A stretch of 64,000 nt of DNA, taken from the NCBI RefSeq assembly GCF_988242995.1, contig NZ_OZ547043.1. One strand, given 5' to 3'. Below are positions 11,960 to 25,016 of this stretch, piece after piece; positions within the stretch are counted from its first letter, which is position 1, and the number at the start of each line of letters is the position of its first letter. A model generated the notes under the pieces. That model saw only the letters and a list, made by a program, of their open reading frames with translations. It did not search any database and was not told where the DNA came from. The translations under genes were made by a program, and so were the position numbers.

Positions 11960-12874
11960 ATGACAAACTTCACGACCAGCACGCCGCATGATGCATTATT
12001 TAAAACCTTTCTCACGCACCCTGACACTGCGCGGGATTTTATGGAGATTCACTTACCTAAAGATTTACGTGAACTGTGCGATCTCGATAGCTTAAAACTG
12101 GAATCCGCCAGCTTTGTCGATGAAAAATTGCGGGCGCTACACTCCGATATTTTATGGTCGGTAAAGACCCGCGAAGGCGATGGCTATATCTATGTGGTGA
12201 TTGAACATCAGAGCCGCGAGGACATTCATATGGCCTTTCGCCTGATGCGCTATTCCATGGCGGTGATGCAGCGCCATATAGAGCATGATAAACGCCAGCC
12301 GCTACCGTTGGTCATCCCGATGCTATTTTATCACGGTAGCCGTAGTCCTTACCCCTGGTCCCTGTGCTGGCTGGACGAATTTGCCGACCCGACTACCGCA
12401 CGGAAGCTTTATAACGCCGCGTTCCCGCTGGTGGATGTTACTGTCGTGCCAGACGACGAGATTGTGCAGCATCGCAGAGTCGCCCTGTTGGAGTTGATCC
12501 AAAAGCATATTCGCCAGCGCGATCTGATGGGGCTTATCGATCAACTGGTAGTATTACTGGTTACAGAGTGTGCTAATGACAGCCAGATAACTGCGCTGTT
12601 AAATTACATTTTACTGACTGGCGATGAAGCGCGTTTTAATGAGTTTATCAGTGAACTTACCCGTCGAATGCCACAACACAGGGAGCGAATAATGACGATT
12701 GCAGAGCGAATTCATAATGATGGATATATAAAAGGGGAGCAGCGCATTCTTCGATTGTTGTTGCAGAATGGGGCGGATCCTGAATGGATACAAAAGATTA
12801 CCGGACTTTCGGCAGAGCAAATGCAGGCATTAAGGCAGCCCTTGCCTGAGCGCTATTCATGGCTCAAGAGCTAA
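11960..12874 (+). CDS. rpnD: Recombination-promoting nuclease RpnD (YhgA/transposase_31 family, PD-(D/E)XK), intact 304 aa
   Basis: Single uninterrupted 304-aa ORF ([36 protein letters not shown]...), the characteristic Rpn N-terminus; K-12 carries this locus as the split pseudogene yjiP/yjiQ (from memory). Confidence 0.8.
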
Positions 12875-12902
12875 TCAGAGACGGATGACAAACGCAAAGC
12901 AG

Positions 12903-13003
12903 CCTGATGCGCTATGCTTATCAGGTCTACATAACCCATTAAATATATTGAACTTTAAAGATTTTTGTAGACCTGGTCAGGCGTTCACATGGCATCCGGC
13001 ATG
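12903..13003. repeat. REP-type palindromic elements (pair) between rpnD and yjiR
   Basis: GCCTGATGCGCTATGCTTATCAGGTCTAC and a partner TGTAGACCTGGTCAGGCG...CATCCGGCATG; resemble the E. coli REP consensus. Confidence 0.6.
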
Positions 13004-13117
13004 AACAAAGCGTACTTTGCTTAATTCAGGCTGGAACGTGGCGATGACCCAGCAAAGATAAAACGAGTCACAGGTTATGCATGAGAGGAAATCAGGCGCT
13101 TCGCCGCTATTTCGAAT

Positions 13118-14530
13118 TTATTCCATTGCCCGATACACGGCCTCGCCAATTTGCTTCAGTGCTTCGCGATAGGTTTCGCTGAGCGGCAAAGCGCAGTTGA
13201 TGCGCAGACAATTACGGTATTTGCCGGAAGCTGAGAAAATCGAGCCTGCCGCCACCTGGATTTTCATGCGGCACAGCTGCCGCGCGACGCAGACCATATC
13301 GACCTGTTCAGGCAATTCTATCCACAGTAAAAATCCGCCTTTCGGGCGCGTAATACAGATTTCGCAGGGAAAATATTCCCGTATCCAGCAGGTATAAAGC
13401 GCCAAATTGCGCTGATAGATCTGCCGCATCCGCCGGATATGGCGATGATAGTGACCTTCCAGCACAAACGTTGCCGCCGCCATTTGCGTGGACGGCACAT
13501 TAAAGCTGCTGATGGCGTATTTCATATGCATCAGTTTATCGTGATAACGCCCCGGTGCGACCCAACCCACGCGCAGGCCTGGTGCAATACTTTTACTGAA
13601 CGAGCTGCACAACAGCACTCGCCCGTCGATATCCCAGGAATGAATGGTCCGCGGGCGCGGATACTCCGTCGCCAGTTCGCCATAGACATCATCTTCAAAA
13701 ATCACAATATCATGACGCTGAGCGAGAGAGAGAACGGCCCGTTTGCGCGCGTCCGGCATAATAAATCCCAGCGGATTATTACAGTTTGGCACCAGAATGA
13801 TGCCTTTAATCGGCCACTGTTCCAGCGCCAGTTCCAGCGCTTCAACGCTGATGCCAGTTTCTGGATCGGTTGGGATTTCAATCACTTTCACGCCCATGCC
13901 GCGCAGCATCTGCATCGAACCGTAATAACAGGGGGATTCGACCGCGACAATATCGCCCGGTTTACACACTGCCATTAACGCCAGCGACATCGAGTTATGG
14001 CAGCCGCTGGTGATGATGATGTCATCGGCGGTGACCACCGAGCCGCTGTCGAGCATCAGGCGGGCAATCTGCTCTCGCAATACTCGCTGACCGGCTAACA
14101 AGTCATAACCGAGAACGGTTTGCAGATTATGCTGCACCACCCGGCTTAGCTCCCGCCAAAGCGGTTTCAGGCTGGGCGCTTCGACATCCGGTGTGCTTTT
14201 GCTTAACGGAACAATGGAACTGTCGCTATGCGCCTCCAGCATATCCAGCACCTGATCCCACTGGGTAATTTCCACCGGGCGCTGCACCGGACGCGTCATC
14301 GGCGGTACTGGCGGCTGGGCTTTACGTTGTGCGACAAAATAACCCGAACGCGGCTGCGGAGTGATGAGCTTCATCGTCTCCAGCGTCTGATACGCCTGCT
14401 GCACGGTGCTGATACTGACGCCGTGCTCCTGACTTAAGCTGCGCACCGACGGCAATTTCTCCCCGTGACGATACAGCCCTTGCTCAATCCGCTCGGCAAG
14501 CAGAGTTGCCAGATGTTGATAACGCGTCAT
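13118..14530 (-). CDS. yjiR: MocR-type regulator YjiR (GntR HTH fused to PLP aminotransferase-like domain)
   Basis: 470-aa ORF; N-terminal GntR HTH (LPSVRSLSQEHGVSISTVQQAYQTLE); PLP-lysine motif SFSKSIAPGLRVGW. Confidence 0.85.
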   Translation of the reverse strand: MTRYQHLATLLAERIEQGLYRHGEKLPSVRSLSQEHGVSISTVQQAYQTLETMKLITPQPRSGYFVAQRKAQPPVPPMTRPVQRPVEITQWDQVLDMLEAHSDSSIVPLSKSTPDVEAPSLKPLWRELSRVVQHNLQTVLGYDLLAGQRVLREQIARLMLDSGSVVTADDIIITSGCHNSMSLALMAVCKPGDIVAVESPCYYGSMQMLRGMGVKVIEIPTDPETGISVEALELALEQWPIKGIILVPNCNNPLGFIMPDARKRAVLSLAQRHDIVIFEDDVYGELATEYPRPRTIHSWDIDGRVLLCSSFSKSIAPGLRVGWVAPGRYHDKLMHMKYAISSFNVPSTQMAAATFVLEGHYHRHIRRMRQIYQRNLALYTCWIREYFPCEICITRPKGGFLLWIELPEQVDMVCVARQLCRMKIQVAAGSIFSASGKYRNCLRINCALPLSETYREALKQIGEAVYRAME

Positions 14531-14706
14531 GCTGTATTCCTTATTTGGACCATACAGAGAGAAAAACCGGTACAGATGAGGCTAAAAAACCGGATGCAGA
14601 TGCTGTTTTAACCTGTCTGTATGTTAAATAAAACTAATATTTGCATCTGTATTGTGAACTGCCTGAAGGTGGATGATGAAGCCTCTGAAAGATGAGGAGG
14701 CAGCAG

Positions 14707-14871
14707 ATGGAATTTTACGAAAACAAAGCCAAAACGCCGTTTATCAGACTTGTGCAACTCTGGCAGGCGGTGAGGCGTTGGCGGCGGCAAATGCAGACCC
14801 GACGAGTGTTACAGCAGATGAGTGATGAGCGGTTGAGGGATATCGGGTTACGCAGGGAGGATGTGGAGTGA
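14707..14871 (+). CDS. yjiS: DUF1127-family small protein YjiS (54 aa); below the ORF-track size cutoff
   Basis: ATG at 14707 preceded by a strong GAGGAGG Shine-Dalgarno; product MEFYENKAKTPFIRLVQLWQAVRRWRRQMQTRRVLQQMSDERLRDIGLRREDVE; stop TGA 14869-14871. Confidence 0.7.
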   Translation: MEFYENKAKTPFIRLVQLWQAVRRWRRQMQTRRVLQQMSDERLRDIGLRREDVE

Positions 14872-15320
14872 GGGGGATATAGATTTATATATAATAAAAC
14901 GTTTTTATGTTGTTAAATTAAGTTATAAAAATTTTCCCGAGACAATTCATCAATAGGTATGGAGTGTACAGGAATATCTTCTTCACTAACCTCTTTAAAC
15001 TCATACTGATAACGGTCAAAAAACGCACAGTGATTACTTGTGTTTTTTGACTGACTTTACAACTCTCATTATTCGCTATTGTGCAGTTTCTCTAATTGTT
15101 TTATATCCTGGAATGTTAAATGTCAGCTACTGAATACTTTTTGATTGTTTGAGATTTATTTTCATTTGAAATTATAAAATCAGGTGATAAATGAGTTGTG
15201 ATTAATAGATGGTTGATATCATTTTTATCAAAAATTGATTTCTAGTATCGACCTTAAAAAATAGTTGTTGCCGCTTGGTTAATTATACGATATTTTGAAA
15301 AGTTTTCTTTCAAATTAGAA

Positions 15321-18300
15321 ATGTTGTGGGGTTTTGTTTTTGTATCTTTTATCTCTAAGGAGCTTGCTTTGGGTCAATCAGAATACATTTCATGGGTAAA
15401 ATGTACTTCCTGGCTAAGTAACTTTGTGAATCTTAGAGGGTTGAGACAACCGGATGGACGTCCTCTTTATGAATATCATGCAACCAATGCTGAATATAAC
15501 CAATTAACGCAGCTACTCTGTGCTGTTGGTCAATCACAATCTAATATATGTAATAGAGACTTTGCTGCCTGTTTTGTTCTTTTTTGCTCTGAGTGGTACC
15601 GCAGGGATTATGAACGGCAATGCGGATGGACGTGGGACCCTATATATAAAAAAATAGGGATTTCATTCACCGCCACAGAGCTTGGTACTATCGTACCGAA
15701 AGGGATGGAAGATTACTGGCTGCGCCCAATTCGATTTTATGAATCTGAACGACGTAATTTTCTCGGAACATTATTCAGTGAAGGTGGTTTACCTTTCCGG
15801 CTACTCAAAGAATCAGACAGTCGCTTTCTGGCTGTTTTCTCCAGGATCCTTGGACAATATGAGCAAGCAAAGCAGTCAGGTTTTTCTGCCCTTTCGCTGG
15901 CAAGAGCTGTCATAGAAAAATCAGCGCTGCCAACTGTTTTTAGCGAAGATACCTCTGTAGAACTTATCAGTCATATGGCTGATAACCTCAATTCCTTAGT
16001 ACTTACTCACAACCTAACAAATCACAAAGAACCAGTACAACAGCTTGATAAGGTTCACCCTACCTGGCGAAGCGAGTTTCCAATACCGTTAGATGATGAA
16101 ACAGGAACGCATTTTTTGAATGGACTGCTATGCGCAGCCTCTGTAGAGGCTAAGCCTCGACTACAAAAAAATAAGAGTACGCGTTGCCAATTCTATTGGT
16201 CAGAAAAGCATCCAGATGAGCTTAGGGTGATAGTATCTCTTCCTGACGAAGTTTCCTTTCCTGTAACTAGCGAGCCGTCAACTACGCGCTTTGAACTTGC
16301 CATTTATGAAGATGGTGAGGAAGTCTCTGGCCTTGGGCCAGCCTATGCTTCCCTGGAAAACAGACAGGCAACAGTTCGATTACGTAAAAGCGAAGTGAGA
16401 TTTGTCAGGCAAAATCCATCTGCAGGTTTGTCGTTAGTGGCTCGTGCTGGAGGGATGATTGTTGGGAGCATTAAACTTGATGACAGTGAAATTGCCATTG
16501 GTGAGGTGCCGTTAACCTTCATCGTTGATGCAGATCAATGGCTGTTACAGGGACAGGCCTCCTGCAGTGTGCGAAGCAGCGATGTTCTGATTGTGCTCCC
16601 TCGGGACAATAGCACTGTTGCTGGTTTTGATGGCCAATCGAGTGCAGTAAACGTATTAGGACTTAAAGCGCTACCTGTTAAGGGATGTCAGGACGTTACA
16701 GTTACAGCAAATGAAACTTATCGGATTCGCACCGGAAGAGAACAAATCAGCATCGGAAGGTTTGCTCTAAATGGAAAGCGTGCAAGCTGGGTTTGTCATC
16801 CAGATGAGACATTTATTGGTGTACCAAAAGTCATTTCTACACTACCAGATATTCAAAGCATTGATGTAACGCGTTACCTGAGCGGAATTTCAATTGAGCA
16901 ATGTCATATACAAGAGATGCTAGGGGCTCAATATCTTTCTATCCGTAATAGTAATAATGAAACGCTCTTGCGTCGCAAAATCGGTATCTTGCCTGCTGAT
17001 TTCAGTATTGAGATAAAAGGTGGAATGCACGCAAATGAAGGCACTATCGTAATCACCACACAGCATCCTTGTGTAGCAACACTTAAAGATAAAACATTGG
17101 AGGCTACACGTAAGCGTACTGAGGGGCGAACAGAGATACAACTCAAAGCGGAAGGGGTACCTCCGGCATTTATTACATTACAAGTTCTGCCTAATTTGGC
17201 GGCTGATACCATCGACATTGAGTTACCTTTCCCAGCTAAAGGCTGCCTTGCTCTTGATGTAAACGGACGTCCTCTGGATAAAAACATTACGCTGCATGAT
17301 CTGCTGGGTTCCAGAGCATTCCTGTTCTCCAGAAATGGTGAGCCGACAAAATATACATTGCAGTTGCATTTGCGCTCCATTAGTGGATTACAGGCATGGC
17401 ACGAATGGAGTTATACGGCATTGAGCGAGCGTCCTGTTGAATTGAATCTCTATAGTCTACGTGAACACATTGAAAATCTGATTTCACTTGAGGCAGGTAT
17501 TGATCAGGTTGTTGAGATGCGTATTACGGGGGCGGGTGTGGTCATGGCCTGGCAAATTCGTCGCTATAAATACAGCCTGCGCTATGATTATGAAAAAGAA
17601 CTATTACTCAGCCAGTCAGTGAACCATCGTGCTGGACAGATTCCTTCCCCCGTTATCATGCTGTTAAGTGAACCCGAGAGGAAATCCATTCCCTTAGCAT
17701 CAAGAATGAGCGAGGGAGTGCCTGTCGGTGAATATGAGTTGAGCTCAATCGTTAACAAAAACGGACCATGGTTGGTTGTTCCTAAACCGGGTGAAGAGAT
17801 GGCTTTTCGCCCCTGCTTCATTCGTGGCGAATCTTCGTTACCGGTAGAAGAAAGCAACATCCGCTCATTGCAGAAAGCGACCCAGCTTTTTAATCCACAG
17901 GCAGAAGTTAATACCATCACACGGGTTCTCGGACAGATGGCTAACGATCCTGCCCATTCCGGCTGGCAATTTATGCGTAGCCTGTACGATCAATTTGGTT
18001 ATTTACCGCTGGCAACCTTTGAAGTATGGCGTGCACTAGTGCAGCATCCGCAGGCATTGGCGATGTCGCTCTTCAAATTCGAAATGTCAGCAGAGTATCT
18101 GAGTCGTATTGAGAATGAGTTCCCTATTTTATGGGAGTTTTTCCCCATCTTTGAGATCAAAGCTGCATCTGAGCGTTTCAAATTGTTCCTGAGCCAAAAA
18201 GGTGCACCGGAGGAAACCCAGAAATTACTGGTTACCAATATGTTTCAACGGCTGGGGCTCGTGTTCCCGACATATGCCGATGAAATTGAGAAATGGTTAA

Positions 18301-18659
18301 GTAATGGATATCTCCCCCCGTCTATTCCTGAATCTTGTGTCCACGGGTGGTATCAGGAGCTCTTACGTGAGCACAGTGAAGCTCGCTGGCCTGAATACGG
18401 CTGCAAGCGTCTGTATAAATGGATGATGTCACAAAAAAATCCAGTGATTGGTATTAATCCTGACGCAAATCACCGCTATTCCGTGGCCTGGTTACCCGTC
18501 TTCGCCGCAGCGGTGGCAAGCGGAAATGCTTCTTTTGAATCTGTATTTGACCGTAAACCCGGTGCCGTATTTTTCCTGAGGCAAGTCAGGGATTTCGATT
18601 CCCGCTGGTTTAAGGCCATCTTCCAGTTCAGCCTGTTGCGTTATGTTGCTAAAAAATAA
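15321..18659 (+). CDS. yjiT: Large protein of unknown function (1112 aa); intact counterpart of the K-12 yjiT pseudogene; candidate DruH-like partner of the downstream helicase
   Basis: Uninterrupted 3.3-kb ORF with no motif I recognise; AT-rich 5' end; alternative in-frame TTG start at 15369 has a perfect AAGGAG Shine-Dalgarno; stop is 12 nt before the next gene. Confidence 0.8.
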   Translation: MLWGFVFVSFISKELALGQSEYISWVKCTSWLSNFVNLRGLRQPDGRPLYEYHATNAEYNQLTQLLCAVGQSQSNICNRDFAACFVLFCSEWYRRDYERQCGWTWDPIYKKIGISFTATELGTIVPKGMEDYWLRPIRFYESERRNFLGTLFSEGGLPFRLLKESDSRFLAVFSRILGQYEQAKQSGFSALSLARAVIEKSALPTVFSEDTSVELISHMADNLNSLVLTHNLTNHKEPVQQLDKVHPTWRSEFPIPLDDETGTHFLNGLLCAASVEAKPRLQKNKSTRCQFYWSEKHPDELRVIVSLPDEVSFPVTSEPSTTRFELAIYEDGEEVSGLGPAYASLENRQATVRLRKSEVRFVRQNPSAGLSLVARAGGMIVGSIKLDDSEIAIGEVPLTFIVDADQWLLQGQASCSVRSSDVLIVLPRDNSTVAGFDGQSSAVNVLGLKALPVKGCQDVTVTANETYRIRTGREQISIGRFALNGKRASWVCHPDETFIGVPKVISTLPDIQSIDVTRYLSGISIEQCHIQEMLGAQYLSIRNSNNETLLRRKIGILPADFSIEIKGGMHANEGTIVITTQHPCVATLKDKTLEATRKRTEGRTEIQLKAEGVPPAFITLQVLPNLAADTIDIELPFPAKGCLALDVNGRPLDKNITLHDLLGSRAFLFSRNGEPTKYTLQLHLRSISGLQAWHEWSYTALSERPVELNLYSLREHIENLISLEAGIDQVVEMRITGAGVVMAWQIRRYKYSLRYDYEKELLLSQSVNHRAGQIPSPVIMLLSEPERKSIPLASRMSEGVPVGEYELSSIVNKNGPWLVVPKPGEEMAFRPCFIRGESSLPVEESNIRSLQKATQLFNPQAEVNTITRVLGQMANDPAHSGWQFMRSLYDQFGYLPLATFEVWRALVQHPQALAMSLFKFEMSAEYLSRIENEFPILWEFFPIFEIKAASERFKLFLSQKGAPEETQKLLVTNMFQRLGLVFPTYADEIEKWLSNGYLPPSIPESCVHGWYQELLREHSEARWPEYGCKRLYKWMMSQKNPVIGINPDANHRYSVAWLPVFAAAVASGNASFESVFDRKPGAVFFLRQVRDFDSRWFKAIFQFSLLRYVAKK

Positions 18660-18671
18660 AAAGGAATAAGG

Positions 18672-21600
18672 ATGACTACACGCTATTTTTCGTCACTTAT
18701 TGAACAATCGTTGTCTCGTTCAACTGAAGCAACGCTCAGTATCATGGGCGTTACAAACCCGCAGTTGCGTGAACATCTCGCGCAGCAAATGGGGGCTGAT
18801 TGTGGGAAACCGGGCTCATTCCTTGCTTCTCCGGTATTCCAGCAAATGTTTGGCTGGAAGGAGTCAAACCACACGATGCGCAGTCTGACGGAAGGCAACG
18901 CATTGTTGAGCAAAGCAGTGGTTGATTCACTGGATGATCAGAGTAATGGCCGGTACCGATTTGGTGCTGACTGGAAGCCTTTTACACACCAGTTAGCCAG
19001 TTGGAAAGCTTTGCTGGAAAAGAAACATTCAGTGGTGGTAACCAGTGGTACGGGTTCAGGTAAAACGGAATGTTTTATGGTACCGGTGCTGGAAGATCTT
19101 TACCGGGAACTGCATGAAAATGGCAACAATCCGTTGGTCGGTGTCCGAGCCCTTTTTCTCTATCCATTGAACGCCTTGATTAATTCACAGCGCGAGCGTC
19201 TGGATGCCTGGACGCGTGGTTTTGGTACTGGGATCCGCTACTGCTTGTATAACGGAAATACAGAAGAGCTCCACGCAAAAATGAAAACAGTGCAGGATAA
19301 TAGACCAAATGAAGTCTTATCCCGTGAAAAGATGCGTCTGGAGCCAGCCCCGATTCTGGTGACCAACGGCACGATGCTGGAATATATGATGGTTCGCCAG
19401 GTCGACGCCCCGATTATCCAGCAATCCAAAGCACAAAAATCACTACGCTGGATTGTACTGGATGAAGCGCATACCTATGTCGGGTCGCAGGCCGCTGAAC
19501 TGGCACTCCAGCTGCGTCGTGTGATGACAGCGTTTGGCGTGACGCCAGATGATGTGCGCTTTGTAGCGACCTCTGCGACCATTGCCTGCAGCGACGCCGA
19601 AAAGCAGCTGAAAAAATTTCTCTCTGAATTATCCGGTATCCCGCAGGAGCGCATCGATGTTCTGGACGGAAGTCGGGTGATTCCTGAACTGGAACCATCC
19701 AAAAACGTTTCTGTTCCGTTAGACGAAATAGAGCAAATACCTGATCTGGATCTAAAAGATAAAAATGATAATAAAATTAAAGGGATAAGCCCTGAGCGCT
19801 TTTATGCGCTTACGCACTCCCCCGAAGCGCGTTACATACGTGAAATGTTGGTTAGCCAACCCAATCCAATGAAACTGGATGAGATGACGCAGCGGTTAAA
19901 TGCGCTGACAAAACAGCATTACAGCCAGCAGGAAGTACTGCGTTGGATCGATGTCTGTTCAGGGACTCAACCTAATGCAAAGGATCCCGCATTTCTTAAA
20001 GTCAGGGCGCATATCTTCCAGCGTAATACCCAAGGAATATGGGCTTGTGTTGATAAAGATTGCAGATTAAAGCACGGTACACCGCTCGAAAAAGGCTGGC
20101 CCTTTGGCTATGTGTATGTGAACCAGCGACAAAATTGTGACTGTGGAAGCCCTGTATACGAAGTTGCATTCTGTAATGATTGTAATGAGCCTCATCTTCT
20201 GGCGCAGGACAAAAAGGGCAAACTTGTCCAATGGGAAAATAAAGGTGGCGATGAGTTCTCCTTGCAGGATGAAGTACCTGTTGAACATGACACTACAGAG
20301 GAAAAAGTCGAAAAAGAGAACGGTTTCCTGCCTCCGTTGATTATTGCCGCAGGAGAGACCAGCGAGACAGGCTATACCCTACAACGCCTCGACCACCAGA
20401 CGCGCCGTATTGGCGTTATTAACAATGACAGCATTCCGCTGATTATTAATGATGTTGAACAGGTTTGTAGCGCCAGTGGCTGTGGCTACAGAGGCATGAG
20501 TGGGAAACAGCCCTTCCGGCGTGCACTATTAGGTGGGCCATTTTACGTTACTAATATCGTGCCCACCGTTCTTGAGTATTGTCAGGACTTTACCAGTGAT
20601 GAAGGCAAAGAGGGCGTCGGACCAGATTCGTTGCCAGGGCGAGGACGTCGACTCATTACCTTTACGGACAGTCGACAAGGTACAGCTCGAATGGCGGTGC
20701 GTATGCAGCAAGAAGCAGAACGCAGTCTCTTACGCGGAAGCGTAGTCGAAATTCTGAGCTGGCATCAACGGACGCAAACGTCCACGGCGCCGAATGCCAA
20801 TGCCGATCTGGAAAAATTAGCGGCCAGGGCAAAGCAAGCCCGTGAGCAGGCAGAAGAATATCGAAGCTGGGGAATGCCAGACCAGGCGAAATTGTCACAA
20901 GCACAGGCTGAACAGCTTGAACAGGCTTATCAGGCTGCAACCGGTGGAAAAGCAGCAACTACCCTGGTATCCCGCACCTGGACAGAAATGGTTAACGAGC
21001 TTAAAGATAAAGCCGATATCCGTGGCCCGGTACTGAAATATAACCACTATTTGCAGCCTGAAGTGTTTAATAAAAACGGCGGGCCACTAAAGCTTTCGGA
21101 AATGTTGTTGTTCCGGGAATTCATGCGTCGCCCTAAACGGACTAACAGCCTGGAAACACAGGGGCTGGTTCAGGTTGGTTACCAGGGGCTGGAGAAAATA
21201 CATAAGAGCCCCTTGCACTGGCAGGAAAAAGGATTAACGCTGGATGACTGGCGCGATTTTCTCAAGGTTACGTTGGATCTTTATGTTCGCGAAAGCAACT
21301 TCACACAGCTGGATGATGAGCTGAAAAACTGGATTGGTAGCCGTTTTTCATCAAAATTCGTCCGTAACCCGGAATCAAAAGATCCTGAAGATAATCAGAA
21401 CAGACGCTGGCCTCAAATTCGTAATGGCAACGTATCCCATCGTTTAGCGAAGTTACTGATGCTGGGGGCTGGATTCAAAACCGTCAATACGGCGACTATT
21501 GATATTATCAATACATGGCTGAAAGAAGCATGGGCCCAACTTACCGGACCACTTGCAGTACTGAAACCCGATGGCAACCGTTTTTATTTACCGAAAGAGC

Positions 21601-24600
21601 ATATGACTTTTTCTTTAATCACGGATGCCTGGATTTGCCCGGTAACCAATAAAATCCTGGATACGGCTTTTAAAGGCTTAACCCCTTATCTGCCCACCCA
21701 TATTTCGTTCGAGCATCTTACCCAGGCGCAATATGACACTTTTGTCGCGCAGAAAGTCACCATGCCGGAAATCTGGAAGCTGGATCGTTCACAGGAAGAC
21801 TACGCAGAGGGTCTGGCAAAAGCACGAGACTGGGTCAACAATGATCCGCTGATCGCACAATTGCGGTCGGAAAACGTCTGGACAGACATCAACGATCGTG
21901 TAGTGGAAGGCGGTTTCTACTATCGCACTGCCGAGCACTCTGCCCAGCAGTCGTCAGAACGCCTGCAAAGCTATGAAAAGATGTTCAAGAACGGGCAACT
22001 AAATGTTCTCAACTGTTCCACCACCATGGAAATGGGGGTTGATATTGGGGGCATTACTGCGGTGGTAATGAACAACGTTCCGCCACATCCGGCCAACTAT
22101 TTACAGCGCGCCGGGCGAGCCGGGCGTAGTAAAGAATCACGCGCGATCTCTTATACCCTATGCAAAGGTAACCCACACGACCAGCAGGTTTTTGCCAACC
22201 CACTCTGGCCATTTGAAACCATGATCCCGGCACCCATGGTCGCGATGAACTCCGCCCGACTGGTGCAACGTCACGTCAATGCATTATTACTGTCTGACTT
22301 TTTATGTAACGTTATTGGCGAAACCGATAAAGAGAAAACCAGCCTCGATAGCCTCTGGTTTTTCGGTGAAGATGACGGGCAGTCAAAATGCGAACGCTTT
22401 AAAGTCTGGCTGGAACGCCCGGTTCTTGATATCGACATGGCGCTGGAACGGCTGGTGAAAGGTACGGCGTTGCATGGCGCAAGAGCCGAACATCTGCGGG
22501 ATAAAACAATCAATGCGATCACCTTCCTGCAACAGCGGTGGCTCTCCGTTTATCGCGATCTCGTGACCCAGGAGCGTGAGTCGCAGCCGCAAACGCCTTA
22601 TCGTAAGCGCATAGAGCTGGAGAAGAAACGGCACTGTGGCGAGTATCTGCTGCGCGATCTGGCTGCCAGAACCTTCCTGCCGGGATACGGTTTCCCGACA
22701 GATGTAGTGACGTTTGATAACTTCACGATGGAAGATTATATCCGCGAAAAATCGCAGAAAAGTCGTGATAAAAAGGACCGTGAAGATAACGTCTCCCGTT
22801 ATAAAGGATTACCTTCCCGTAACCTCGGTGTTGCCATTCGTGAATATGCACCGGGAGCAGAGATCATTCTTGATGGTCGTGTCTTCCGCTCTGCCGGTGT
22901 CTCACTGCACTGGCACAACATTAATGCTGATACCAATGAAGCCCAGCGTCTGGATTGCGCCTGGCGCTGTCACAAATGCGGGACCATTGGCTATGAAGAG
23001 GGGATGAGCAGTTCCGGGATGCTCTTTTGCTCCAACAGCGCCTGCGGCGAAAAAATAACCATGGATAATCGCCGTCAGGTGTTGCAGCCTGCCGGGTTTG
23101 TCACCGATGCACACGCTCCGGTAACGAACAATATTGAAACCATGAAATTCGTCCCGGTTGTCCCCGCGTGGGTCTTTGTTAAAGCAGAGCCTGTACCGTT
23201 GCCTAACCCGCTAATGGGTTATATGGCTTCTGGGGCTGATGGGCATGTTTTCCAGCAAAGTTTGGGGGAAGGTGGACACGGTTATGCATTGTGTCTGAGC
23301 TGTGGCCGTGCGGAGTCGATGCTGAATGAAAATGATGCACCGAAAAGTATGGAAGCTCACTATCCACCGCGTCCGGGTAAAGCGGACCGCGACAGCCAGA
23401 ATCATCGTCTGATTTGCCCCGGTTCGACGGCACTCATGAAGAACGTCACCCTGGGCGCACTGGCGCGCACCGATGTCTTTGAAATGGTTCTGCGCAAACC
23501 GCAAAACGGCGAGTATCTGCCAGATAACACAGAAGAGGGGCGGATTGTCGCTATGACTCTGGCGGTTGCTCTGCGTCAGGCGCTGGCAGGCGTTCTGGGT
23601 ATCTCCGCCGCAGAACTCGGCTATTCTGTACGTCCGGTCAGACTGGAGGATGGGCAATCGGTATTAGCCGTTCAGCTTTATGATGTGATCAGCGGTGGTG
23701 CTGGTTTTGCCTCCAGCGCACCGGTACATATTGAAGCTATATTGCAGGGAATGGTGAAACAGTTAGGCTGCCGCCATTGTGATACTGCATGCAGTGAATG
23801 TCTGCTTGATTCCCAGACTCGCCACGATCACGATTTGCTGGATCGCAAAGTGGCGCTGGCTTGGCTTGGCGATGACTTCACGTATTACATCGGTTTACCG
23901 GATGAAGAGACATTCTCGCTGCCGGATGCCCGCTACTGCCCTGGCGCTATTGGCGATACGATTCGCCGGGCGATTAACGAAGGCGCTGAAAAGCTCACCC
24001 TGTGGATGACTGGCGCGCCCAATGAGTGGGATTTATACGGCCGTCAGTTCCGCGCGGCTATTCAGAGCTATCGGCTAAAAGACAACGTCGAGGTCGATCT
24101 TGTTATTCCTGCGGGAGTGGATGACCCAGACCTGTTGCATGAACTATCGCAATTTACTGCGCTGGGTGTGCGGTTGTGCCATGTTGAGCAGGAGCTGCAA
24201 TTACCGATTGTTGCCCAGGTCACCTTTGCCGATCGCGTGATGACGCTGGCCTCTCGCAGTCAGCAGGCAACGATTCCGGGGCCGGAGTGGCACCTGAATG
24301 ACGAACTGGTGGTGCGTAGTCTCGGTTATCAAACGGTAGAACTGAACGAGTTTATTCTGCCCGCTAAAGCCGCCAACGCTGTCGAGCGGGTCAAAGACAT
24401 TCAGATCCACAAACAGTTGAATGGACCACTTTCGCAGTTTGGGCAACGCTTCTGGGACGTGCTGTTTAACGACCATGAAGAAGCGCAGTCACTGATGAAA
24501 AACACGCGAATTACCGGCGTTCACTATACCGATCGCTATCTGCAAAACCCGGTTGCGCTGGCGTTGTTGGGATCAATTCTGAAACCGCTAAAAACAAAGC

Positions 24601-25016
24601 TGACCGATGGCGCTGAAGTGGCGCTGGATACGCTGTTTAAAGATAAAGATCGCCCCGGTAACCGGCCTTTCCATGACTGGATGAGCATAGCGGATTTTCA
24701 GGATTTCGCTGATCAGTGGTTTGCTGCTGCGCTGGGCAGGCCGATAGAACTGACGGTGTTCGATTCGCCGCGCGATATCCCTCACCATCGTAAACTGACG
24801 GTGACTTTTGAGGATGGTCAGGTATTGAAGATCCGCTTCGATCAGGGGATGGGCTACTGGCGCATCAACTTTGCATCGCAATGGCATTACTTTGATTTCC
24901 GCGATGACGTTTCTTTCCAGTTAGTCAAAATGGCTCAGGCCTGCAAGGAAGGGAATGTGGCCAACAGCGAAGAGAGCTGGGCAACGGATGTGCTGGTGGA
25001 GGTGATCGCCTCCTGA
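18672..25016 (+). CDS. yjiV: Giant SF2 (DEAH-type) helicase with Cys-ribbon modules (2114 aa); intact counterpart of the K-12 yjiV pseudogene; candidate DruE-like defence helicase
   Basis: AAGGAATAAGG Shine-Dalgarno before ATG 18672; Walker [10 protein letters not shown] (aa 124-132, nt 19041-19067); motif II VLDEAH (aa 262-267); motif [10 protein letters not shown] (aa 1145-1152); Cys clusters near nt 20046-20184 and CxxC...CxxC near nt 23292-23812. Confidence 0.85.

Follow-up and report, generated by a model that had tools for sequence, protein, structure and literature searches.

The DUF1127 small-protein gene yjiS of Escherichia coli, its predicted control by the divergent regulator YjiR and its border with a Druantia type III cassette

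Small DUF1127 proteins and modulators of sensor kinases

The function of the small protein YjiS was studied directly in 2025. According to its published description, YjiS of Salmonella Typhimurium is a DUF1127 protein of 54 amino acids with 11 arginines and a DIGL motif, and its gene flanks the immigration control region (PMC11707872). The Salmonella gene is documented by Ribo-seq, northern and western evidence, and its mRNA, ribosome footprints and tagged protein were all found in SPI-2-inducing medium only (PMC11707872). The protein associates with the inner membrane from the cytoplasmic side, as a peripheral protein that high salt releases, and its pull-down included the sensor kinase SsrA; a yjiS mutant presented more flagella and escaped earlier from macrophages (PMC11707872). 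Expression of the Salmonella gene, tied to SPI-2 conditions, depends on SsrB, whereas E. coli has neither SsrA nor SsrB, and the regulation of yjiS may therefore differ between the genera. In E. coli, mutation of yjiS raised pstS mRNA, accelerated phosphate uptake and slightly impaired growth, and YjiS was found to bind PhoR by Far-Western analysis and in a bacterial two-hybrid assay, in the latter in only one of the orientations tested (PMC12501420). The E. coli protein also complemented the pstS phenotype of an Agrobacterium triple DUF1127 mutant, and a model was proposed in which the basic YjiS binds the acidic cytoplasmic linker of PhoR and favours its phosphatase state (PMC12501420). An earlier note on the DNA analysed here had called such small basic proteins poorly characterised, a statement that these reports have put out of date.

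Two further groups of DUF1127 proteins are the closest described relatives in function. SDP1–3 of Agrobacterium tumefaciens share with YjiS both the domain and the binding of PhoR, but they present only 24% 'homology' with it (the term used in that paper) and are multi-copy paralogues (PMC12501420). CcaF1 of Rhodobacter sphaeroides is likewise small, arginine-rich and of the DUF1127 family. It is known to bind RNA, its gene is co-transcribed with the CcsR small RNAs, and it is 20% identical to Salmonella YjiS; the yjiS locus has no small RNA cluster. Outside the family, MgrB and SafA belong to the same functional class, that of proteins of about 50 amino acids that tune a sensor kinase (PhoQ in their case). 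They are unrelated to YjiS in sequence, and they are inserted in the membrane and act on the periplasmic domain of PhoQ, whereas YjiS is peripheral and cytoplasmic with no predicted transmembrane helix, as reported for the Salmonella protein. MgrB is moreover induced by its own target system, whereas no Pho box was found near yjiS; such feedback is a trait of some members of the class and not a requirement. A search for Pho boxes with up to three mismatches returned none in the whole 64-kb stretch of DNA that was analysed (64,000 nucleotides, hereafter the window).

The yjiS reading frame and its product

The coding sequence of the DUF1127/YjiS-like small protein lies at 14707–14871 on the plus strand of the window, as the earlier note had placed it, with ATG at 14707 and TGA at 14869–14871 (165 nt, that is, 54 codons and the stop). 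Its translation, MEFYENKAKTPFIRLVQLWQAVRRWRRQMQTRRVLQQMSDERLRDIGLRREDVE, is a very basic, mostly helical protein of 6.9 kDa with a pI of 11.1, in which 11 of the 54 residues are arginine. This content of 20% compares with a mean of 14% for the DUF1127 family (PMC12501420), the domain being C-terminal in YjiS; the arginine-rich stretch previously quoted corresponds to residues 19–52. The DUF1127 assignment, for which a Pfam HMM search had been suggested, was borne out by a match to PF06568 with 50.1 bits against a cut-off of 23.3 bits (E = 2.3e-13), in which residues 18–54 align with profile positions 1–37 of 37. The DIGL motif, so named in the Salmonella work (PMC11707872), is formed by D45-I46-G47-L48; across 39 YjiS orthologues D45 and G47 do not vary, and L48 hardly varies. 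NCBIfam contains no YjiS model.

This ORF is yjiS, a known gene of E. coli that is already annotated in K-12 as b4341 and whose family is already in Pfam. RefSeq annotates identical DNA as yjiS, a DUF1127 domain-containing protein (WP_000397910.1). The K-12 protein (NP_418761.1), also 54 amino acids long, is encoded by the same gene in the same place, with yjiR on one side and the immigration control region on the other; 49 of the 54 residues are identical (91%, no gaps), and the five differences from the window to K-12, Y4H, K7R, T10A, R14G and R44K, are clustered in the N-terminal third.

Translation is preceded by a Shine-Dalgarno sequence GAGGAGG (14694–14700, plus strand), read from the sequence and confirming the one described before; its end is separated from the ATG by 6 nt, and its GGAG core is kept in most orthologous spacers. 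A second in-frame ATG is found upstream (14692–14694, plus strand), and the ORF listing lengthens the frame to that codon, giving 59 amino acids. The frame is indeed open from 14692 in the window strain, so that a 59-residue product could be drawn from it, but this ATG falls within the Shine-Dalgarno sequence and lacks its own ribosome-binding site. In K-12 an in-frame TAG (CAG in the window) follows the equivalent ATG, and in a Klebsiella sequence the equivalent position is GTG, again followed by an in-frame TAG before the equivalent of 14707. All 71 orthologues begin with MEF, and the RefSeq start is the equivalent of 14707. A 59-residue form is thus extremely improbable, and its ATG is not the start codon; the position within the Shine-Dalgarno sequence and the TAG codons of K-12 and Klebsiella identify 14707 as the real start. 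The same extension probably accounts for the absence of yjiS from the ORF track, which the earlier note had reported: a frame of 59 amino acids falls just under the default threshold of 60. That omission is plausible for the track, but the curated annotation does contain the gene.

For conservation, each species was represented by one genome in a pattern-based scan, which yielded 62 yjiS loci and, together with loci fetched otherwise, 71 copies. The genera represented were Escherichia, Citrobacter, Klebsiella, Raoultella, Kluyvera, Leclercia, Enterobacter, Pantoea, Erwinia and Tatumella. Every one of the 71 copies starts with ATG, and 60 of them encode 54 amino acids and seven 53. For 56 distinct 54-codon alleles, a pooled Nei-Gojobori estimate gave a dN/dS of about 0.13, a value that is approximate because dS is saturated, and the summed column entropy at codon positions 1, 2 and 3 was 38.0, 27.7 and 65.7, respectively. 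These comparisons show purifying selection on the frame across genera; a lack of conservation of the reading frame in related genomes had been named earlier as grounds for giving up the gene, and conservation is what was found. Short ORFs are frequent in this DNA, with 50 of at least 30 amino acids in 6 kb, and an ORF of the length of yjiS is not significant by length alone. A chance ORF in place of a gene has nevertheless next to no likelihood against the Pfam match (E = 2.3e-13), the maintenance of frame and length in 71 loci and the published phenotypes and protein detection for YjiS, and this reading is already refuted by conservation. It is the Pfam match, the RefSeq annotation and purifying selection that identify yjiS as a gene, not the length of its ORF. 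Salmonella YjiS appeared neither among the 62 loci of the pattern-based scan nor among the best 120 of 646 profile matches.

In Citrobacter koseri NCTC10786 (locus L066), yjiS is cut to 40 amino acids and the yjiR match is fragmented. The idea that this locus represents co-decay of yjiR and yjiS was set aside, since an intact C. koseri YjiS of 54 amino acids (P0141 of the profile search) is present on 206 contigs; the damage is accordingly treated as strain-specific or possibly as an assembly error.

A structure prediction with AF2, based on 39 orthologues, gave a model with a mean pLDDT of 80, a long helix at residues 9–37 and short helices at 40–46 and 50–53. A PDB sequence-profile search with YjiS returned nothing below E = 0.06, and Foldseek comparison of the model with the PDB gave no matches, for which reason the mechanism considered here is drawn from the literature. 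An arginine-rich helical protein could also act mainly on RNA, as CcaF1 does, altering RNA maturation or stability, with the effect on PhoR being secondary. The Pfam domain common to YjiS and CcaF1 and the high arginine content and pI of YjiS are consistent with this, and CcaF1 binds RNA and yet complements the Agrobacterium phosphate phenotype (PMC8034643; PMC12501420), so that one domain may do both jobs. On the other hand, a later paper states that no evidence exists for an interaction of Salmonella YjiS with RNA, the partners of that protein were mainly inner-membrane proteins, and identity with CcaF1 is only 20%. No small RNA is co-encoded at the locus, where the downstream DNA is a variable island: an Rfam scan of 14300–15500 with a permissive E-value returned only four chance-level matches to archaeal C/D-box families (E values of 0.26–0.83), caused by GAUGAUGA...CUGA in the leader. 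A mainly RNA-binding YjiS is therefore considered unlikely, and modulation of sensor kinases is the reading retained below.

The control region shared with yjiR

On the minus strand, divergent from yjiS, lies yjiR (13118–14530), which encodes a MocR-type regulator of 470 amino acids with a GntR helix-turn-helix and an aminotransferase-like domain (Pfam GntR and Aminotran_1_2). The NCBIfam models for MocR-like proteins (PdxR, GabR and other named ones) match YjiR below their cut-offs. A divergent YjiR orthologue, 64–99% identical by tblastn, precedes yjiS wherever the sequence of the locus extends far enough upstream, and the pairing spans from Escherichia to Erwinia, Pantoea and Tatumella.

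The control region shared by the two genes comprises 176 bp (14531–14706), and it was delimited by spacer lengths, a phylogenetic footprint and published K-12 SELEX data. In all 68 loci where it could be measured, the start-to-start spacer between yjiR and yjiS is 175–178 bp long. An alignment of 63 distinct spacers, in which column blocks conserved to at least 95% were taken as the footprint, revealed five boxes of the CTGTAT/ATACAG type. Box 1 (14532–14537, plus strand), CTGTAT, is a block conserved to at least 95% that abuts the yjiR start codon. Box 2 (14552–14557, minus strand) reads ATACAG on the plus strand, hence CTGTAT on the minus strand, at 20 bp from box 1, and box 3 (14570–14575, minus strand), 18 bp further on, reads GTACAG on the plus strand and CTGTAC on the minus strand. 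Box 4 (14617–14622, plus strand) is a CTGTAT within the invariant block TCTGTATGTTAAA, at 47 bp from box 3, and box 5 (14647–14652, plus strand), also CTGTAT, follows at 30 bp from box 4 and 59–62 bp upstream of the yjiS ATG. This spacing of 20, 18, 47 and 30 bp holds, to within 1 bp, for 59 of the 63 distinct spacers, and 67 of 73 loci contain exactly one CTGTAT-N24-CTGTAT arrangement, in each case shortly before yjiS. The hexamer CTGTAT is present in 26 copies on both strands of the 64-kb window, from which about 0.07 copies would be expected in 176 bp; four exact copies were observed. Compared with K-12, the control region is identical save for five substitutions, none of them in the boxes, and in the window no TAG closes the frame opened by the upstream ATG.

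Operators of MocR regulators typically combine direct and inverted TGT-containing boxes in a spacer shared with the divergent target (PMC5320631). Those of GabR, PdxR and TauR, with direct and inverted 6-bp TGT repeats between the regulator gene and its divergent target, resemble the yjiR–yjiS boxes in this respect; in contrast, the target of these regulators is a metabolic operon and that predicted for YjiR a small regulatory protein. A comparative genomics study of 2016 had described a 'YjiR - Enterobacteriales' regulog consisting of COG5457, that is, yjiS, with members in E. coli (b4340), Citrobacter koseri, Enterobacter sp. 638 and Pectobacterium (PMC5320631). The footprint reproduces this regulon prediction independently and extends it. 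No experimental link between YjiR and yjiS was found in the literature searched, the regulon being an in-silico prediction, nor did that literature contain a paper naming both MocR and DUF1127. The two functional papers on YjiS make no mention of YjiR or MocR (PMC11707872, PMC12501420), and the paper on CcaF1 mentions neither MocR nor GntR (PMC8034643). For yjiR itself, a study on EHEC reported patchy prevalence and induction of its promoter in the mouse gut (PMC6550539).

Genomic SELEX in K-12 located a site of the RNA polymerase sigma-70 holoenzyme in the spacer, with predicted divergent promoters, and the predicted yjiS promoter is TTAACC-15-TAAAAG (PMC3946193). Placed on this promoter, box 4 falls between the -35 and -10 elements and box 5 just downstream. 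In a strict consensus scan of 14400–15400, no sigma-70 promoter passed. The possibility that the CTGTAT boxes are PhoB sites was rejected, the likeness to the CTGTCAT half-site being superficial and the 30-bp spacing wrong for PhoB.

A single-sequence fold of the leader suggested that a candidate anti-Shine-Dalgarno sequence, GCCUCU (14681–14686, plus strand), pairs with GGAGGC (14696–14701) and would hide the Shine-Dalgarno sequence (z = -2.16). RNAalifold returned no consensus structure for 30 orthologous leaders. When six pairs were specified by hand, 80% of the cells were paired, compared with 45–62% in slid controls; covariation was weak, with compensatory changes in the two outer pairs only. 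Sequestration of the Shine-Dalgarno sequence in a hairpin might provide a second layer of control, the hairpin itself not being claimed.

The explanation that best accounts for the whole, and that is considered likely, is that the ORF is the known yjiS, controlled by YjiR, translated from 14707 and acting as a small protein that modulates two-component sensor kinases. Transcription would start in the 176-bp spacer common to the divergent yjiR, as also predicted in the literature. We infer, again in line with published prediction, that YjiR as a PLP-dependent regulator of the MocR type would bind the five CTGTAT/ATACAG boxes and control yjiS. Translation from ATG 14707 by means of the strong Shine-Dalgarno sequence, demonstrated in Salmonella, would proceed similarly in E. 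coli. The product would bind PhoR and hold down Pho-regulon/pstS expression and phosphate uptake, as shown for the K-12 allele, and the 91% identical allele of the window would presumably behave in the same way. The protein would be placed peripherally at the cytoplasmic face of the inner membrane, as in Salmonella, where SsrA was among the proteins pulled down.

More tentatively, the two genes are proposed to form a self-contained relay, a possibility that still falls short of likely: YjiR, as a PLP-dependent MocR sensor of amino compounds, would switch on or off YjiS, which in turn would bind PhoR and, in Salmonella, maybe SsrA too. If this relay is true, a signal from an amino compound or vitamin B6 would be coupled to phosphate signalling, and if YjiR drives YjiS, it would be the missing input of a small protein by which the phosphate sensor PhoR is tuned. 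The five boxes with their fixed spacing constitute a concrete, testable candidate operator for YjiR. The gene, its family, its function and the predicted link to YjiR are already known; the complete route by which YjiR would act on PhoR by way of YjiS is a hypothesis not previously stated.

The border with Druantia type III and the distribution of yjiS in E. coli

The order of genes at the locus is mdtM, rpnD, yjiR, yjiS, yjiT, helicase, mcrCB, symE and hsd, and the position of yjiS between the MocR regulator and the defence cassette, as given in the earlier note, agrees with Pfam, RefSeq and PADLOC. Downstream of yjiS, an AT-rich spacer (14872–15320) leads into the cassette, with a GC content of 27.8% compared with 52.7% for yjiS. 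It is followed on the plus strand by yjiT (15321–18659), which corresponds to DruH of Druantia type III (PADLOC DruH3, 1829.8 bits, full length) and is annotated as yjiT in RefSeq with a start corresponding to 15369. The next gene (18672–25016, plus strand), an ORF of 2114 amino acids, encodes a DEAD/DEAH helicase that corresponds to DruE of the same system (PADLOC DruE3, 2692.2 bits). Druantia type III (DruH/DruE) is intact in the window; K-12, in contrast, has a truncated yjiT and a yjiV pseudogene.

The immigration control region has been defined as the DNA between yjiS and yjiA (PMC3874153, PMC2481252). In the window, the junction between conserved DNA and this variable region was placed at 14871–14880, where E. 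coli genome alignments end, that is, at the yjiS stop codon. A query consisting of the spacer and yjiS had a megablast match in 3739 of 5426 complete E. coli genomes, with at least 80% of it covered in 3679, compared with only 626 genomes in which the match continued into the AT-rich spacer and the start of the cassette. Among 64 loci, the first gene downstream of yjiS belonged to 23 unrelated clusters; the commonest neighbour was a MarR regulator (28 loci), and efflux genes came next in the Klebsiella and L007 loci.

These data bear on the idea that yjiS is a regulatory or accessory part of Druantia type III, co-transcribed or co-regulated with it. The gene does lie 450 bp upstream of the cassette on the same strand, and there is no terminator-like site after it: a scan of 14400–15400 returned no intrinsic terminator, and a fold of 14840–14960 showed no stable 3' hairpin (z = +1.33). 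Such a role is nonetheless highly improbable in view of the end of E. coli homology at the stop codon, the far larger number of genomes with yjiS than with the start of the cassette, the 23 kinds of downstream neighbour and the absence of any match of YjiS to a PADLOC defence-component model. The low-GC spacer, in which an H-NS site and a promoter of yjiT have been reported for K-12 (PMC3946193), points the same way; travelling with yjiT/druH, it is best assigned to the cassette and not to yjiS. On these comparative data, the reading of YjiS as a Druantia component is already contradicted, and yjiS is not part of Druantia type III but the last gene of the conserved DNA bordering the variable immigration control region. 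The earlier note had asked whether the gene is co-regulated with either neighbour. Computationally the question is settled with a clear answer, in which yjiS is predicted to go with yjiR, through their conserved divergent pairing, the boxes and the published regulon, and not with the helicase cassette of the defence island, from which the homology break and the diversity of neighbours separate it.

Within E. coli, yjiR and yjiS are present or absent together, and about 31% of complete genomes are without the pair; any role of YjiS in Pho control must for that reason be dispensable. With neither gene present in roughly one complete E. coli genome in three, E. coli B being one example, caution is advisable in generalising the YjiS–PhoR interaction across strains. 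In E. coli B, rpnD', yjiR, yjiS, druH and the 5' part of druE have been lost beside an IS1, and in ETEC H10407 the loss comprises everything from beyond mdtM to yjiA.

The N-terminal third of yjiS

When yjiS (window 14707-14871, plus strand) was compared with its counterpart in E. coli K-12 MG1655 (b4341), nine nucleotide differences were found within about 36 bp, at codons 4-15 (window 14716-14751), and these account for four amino-acid changes (Y4H, K7R, T10A and R14G). The remainder of the gene presented two more differences, R44K and one synonymous change in R33, and the 176-bp control region that separates yjiS from the divergent MocR-type regulator gene yjiR (window 13118-14530, minus strand) only five. 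Across genera, dN/dS values of 0.165 and 0.087 were obtained for the N-terminal and C-terminal parts of yjiS, respectively. The cluster of differences in the N-terminal third could be a local mosaic, or could reflect relaxed or diversifying selection.

The yjiS leader and the opposite strand

In the yjiS leader, at window 14681-14701, pairing of GCCUCU with GGAGGC would form a candidate hairpin and mask the Shine-Dalgarno sequence of yjiS (GAGGAGG, window 14694-14700); pair counts lent this hairpin weak support, and RNAalifold gave it none. Weak Rfam matches to archaeal C/D-box sRNAs (window 14668-14709), which arise because the leader contains GAUGAUGA...CUGA, scored far under the gathering scores and were rejected as chance. 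On the minus strand, a TTG-initiated ORF of 60 aa (window 14608-14790) overlaps the yjiS start; it lies opposite a conserved gene and is presumably a chance occurrence.

The 3' boundary of yjiS and the neighbouring genes

Homology between E. coli genomes ends no more than 10 bp from the stop codon of yjiS (window 14871-14880), and therefore the 3' untranslated region of yjiS, as well as any terminator, comes from the resident island; no terminator-like hairpin is present 3' of yjiS in the window. An intact Druantia type III system, the helicase cassette, lies downstream (window 15321-25016), and comprises DruH (yjiT), a 1112-aa ORF whose RefSeq start is equivalent to window 15369, and DruE, a DEAD/DEAH helicase of 2114 aa. 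The truncated yjiT and the pseudogene yjiV of K-12 are apparently degraded remnants of this system. Upstream, rpnD, an Rpn-family nuclease gene (window 11960-12874), is an intact ORF of 304 aa and is annotated as a pseudogene in K-12.

Absence of yjiR-yjiS and irregular loci

Among complete E. coli genomes, about 31% gave no match to yjiR-yjiS. Two such cases affect the equivalent of window 12874-15320. In E. coli B (L072), an IS1-flanked deletion takes the 3' end of rpnD, yjiR, yjiS, druH and the 5' part of druE, and the common laboratory strain B is therefore without YjiS; in ETEC H10407 (L073), an IS1-associated deletion spans from beyond mdtM to yjiA. Citrobacter koseri NCTC10786 (L066) presented a truncated yjiS of 40 aa and a fragmentary yjiR match (45% over 389 columns), and Leclercia NCTC13032 (L046) an intact yjiS of 53 aa with a fragmentary match for yjiR only. 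Since an intact C. koseri YjiS was found on 206 other contigs, these defects are attributed to damage in the individual strains or possibly to misassembly, and are not evidence of decay. Among loci L009, L010 and L065, yjiS copies 98% identical to that of the window occur on contigs bearing the labels 'MAG: Bacillota bacterium' and 'MAG: Collinsella sp.', and a yjiR-yjiS pair of Enterobacteriaceae type on one labelled 'Chryseobacterium sp. 18061'; these three loci are probably contamination or mis-binning in public records.
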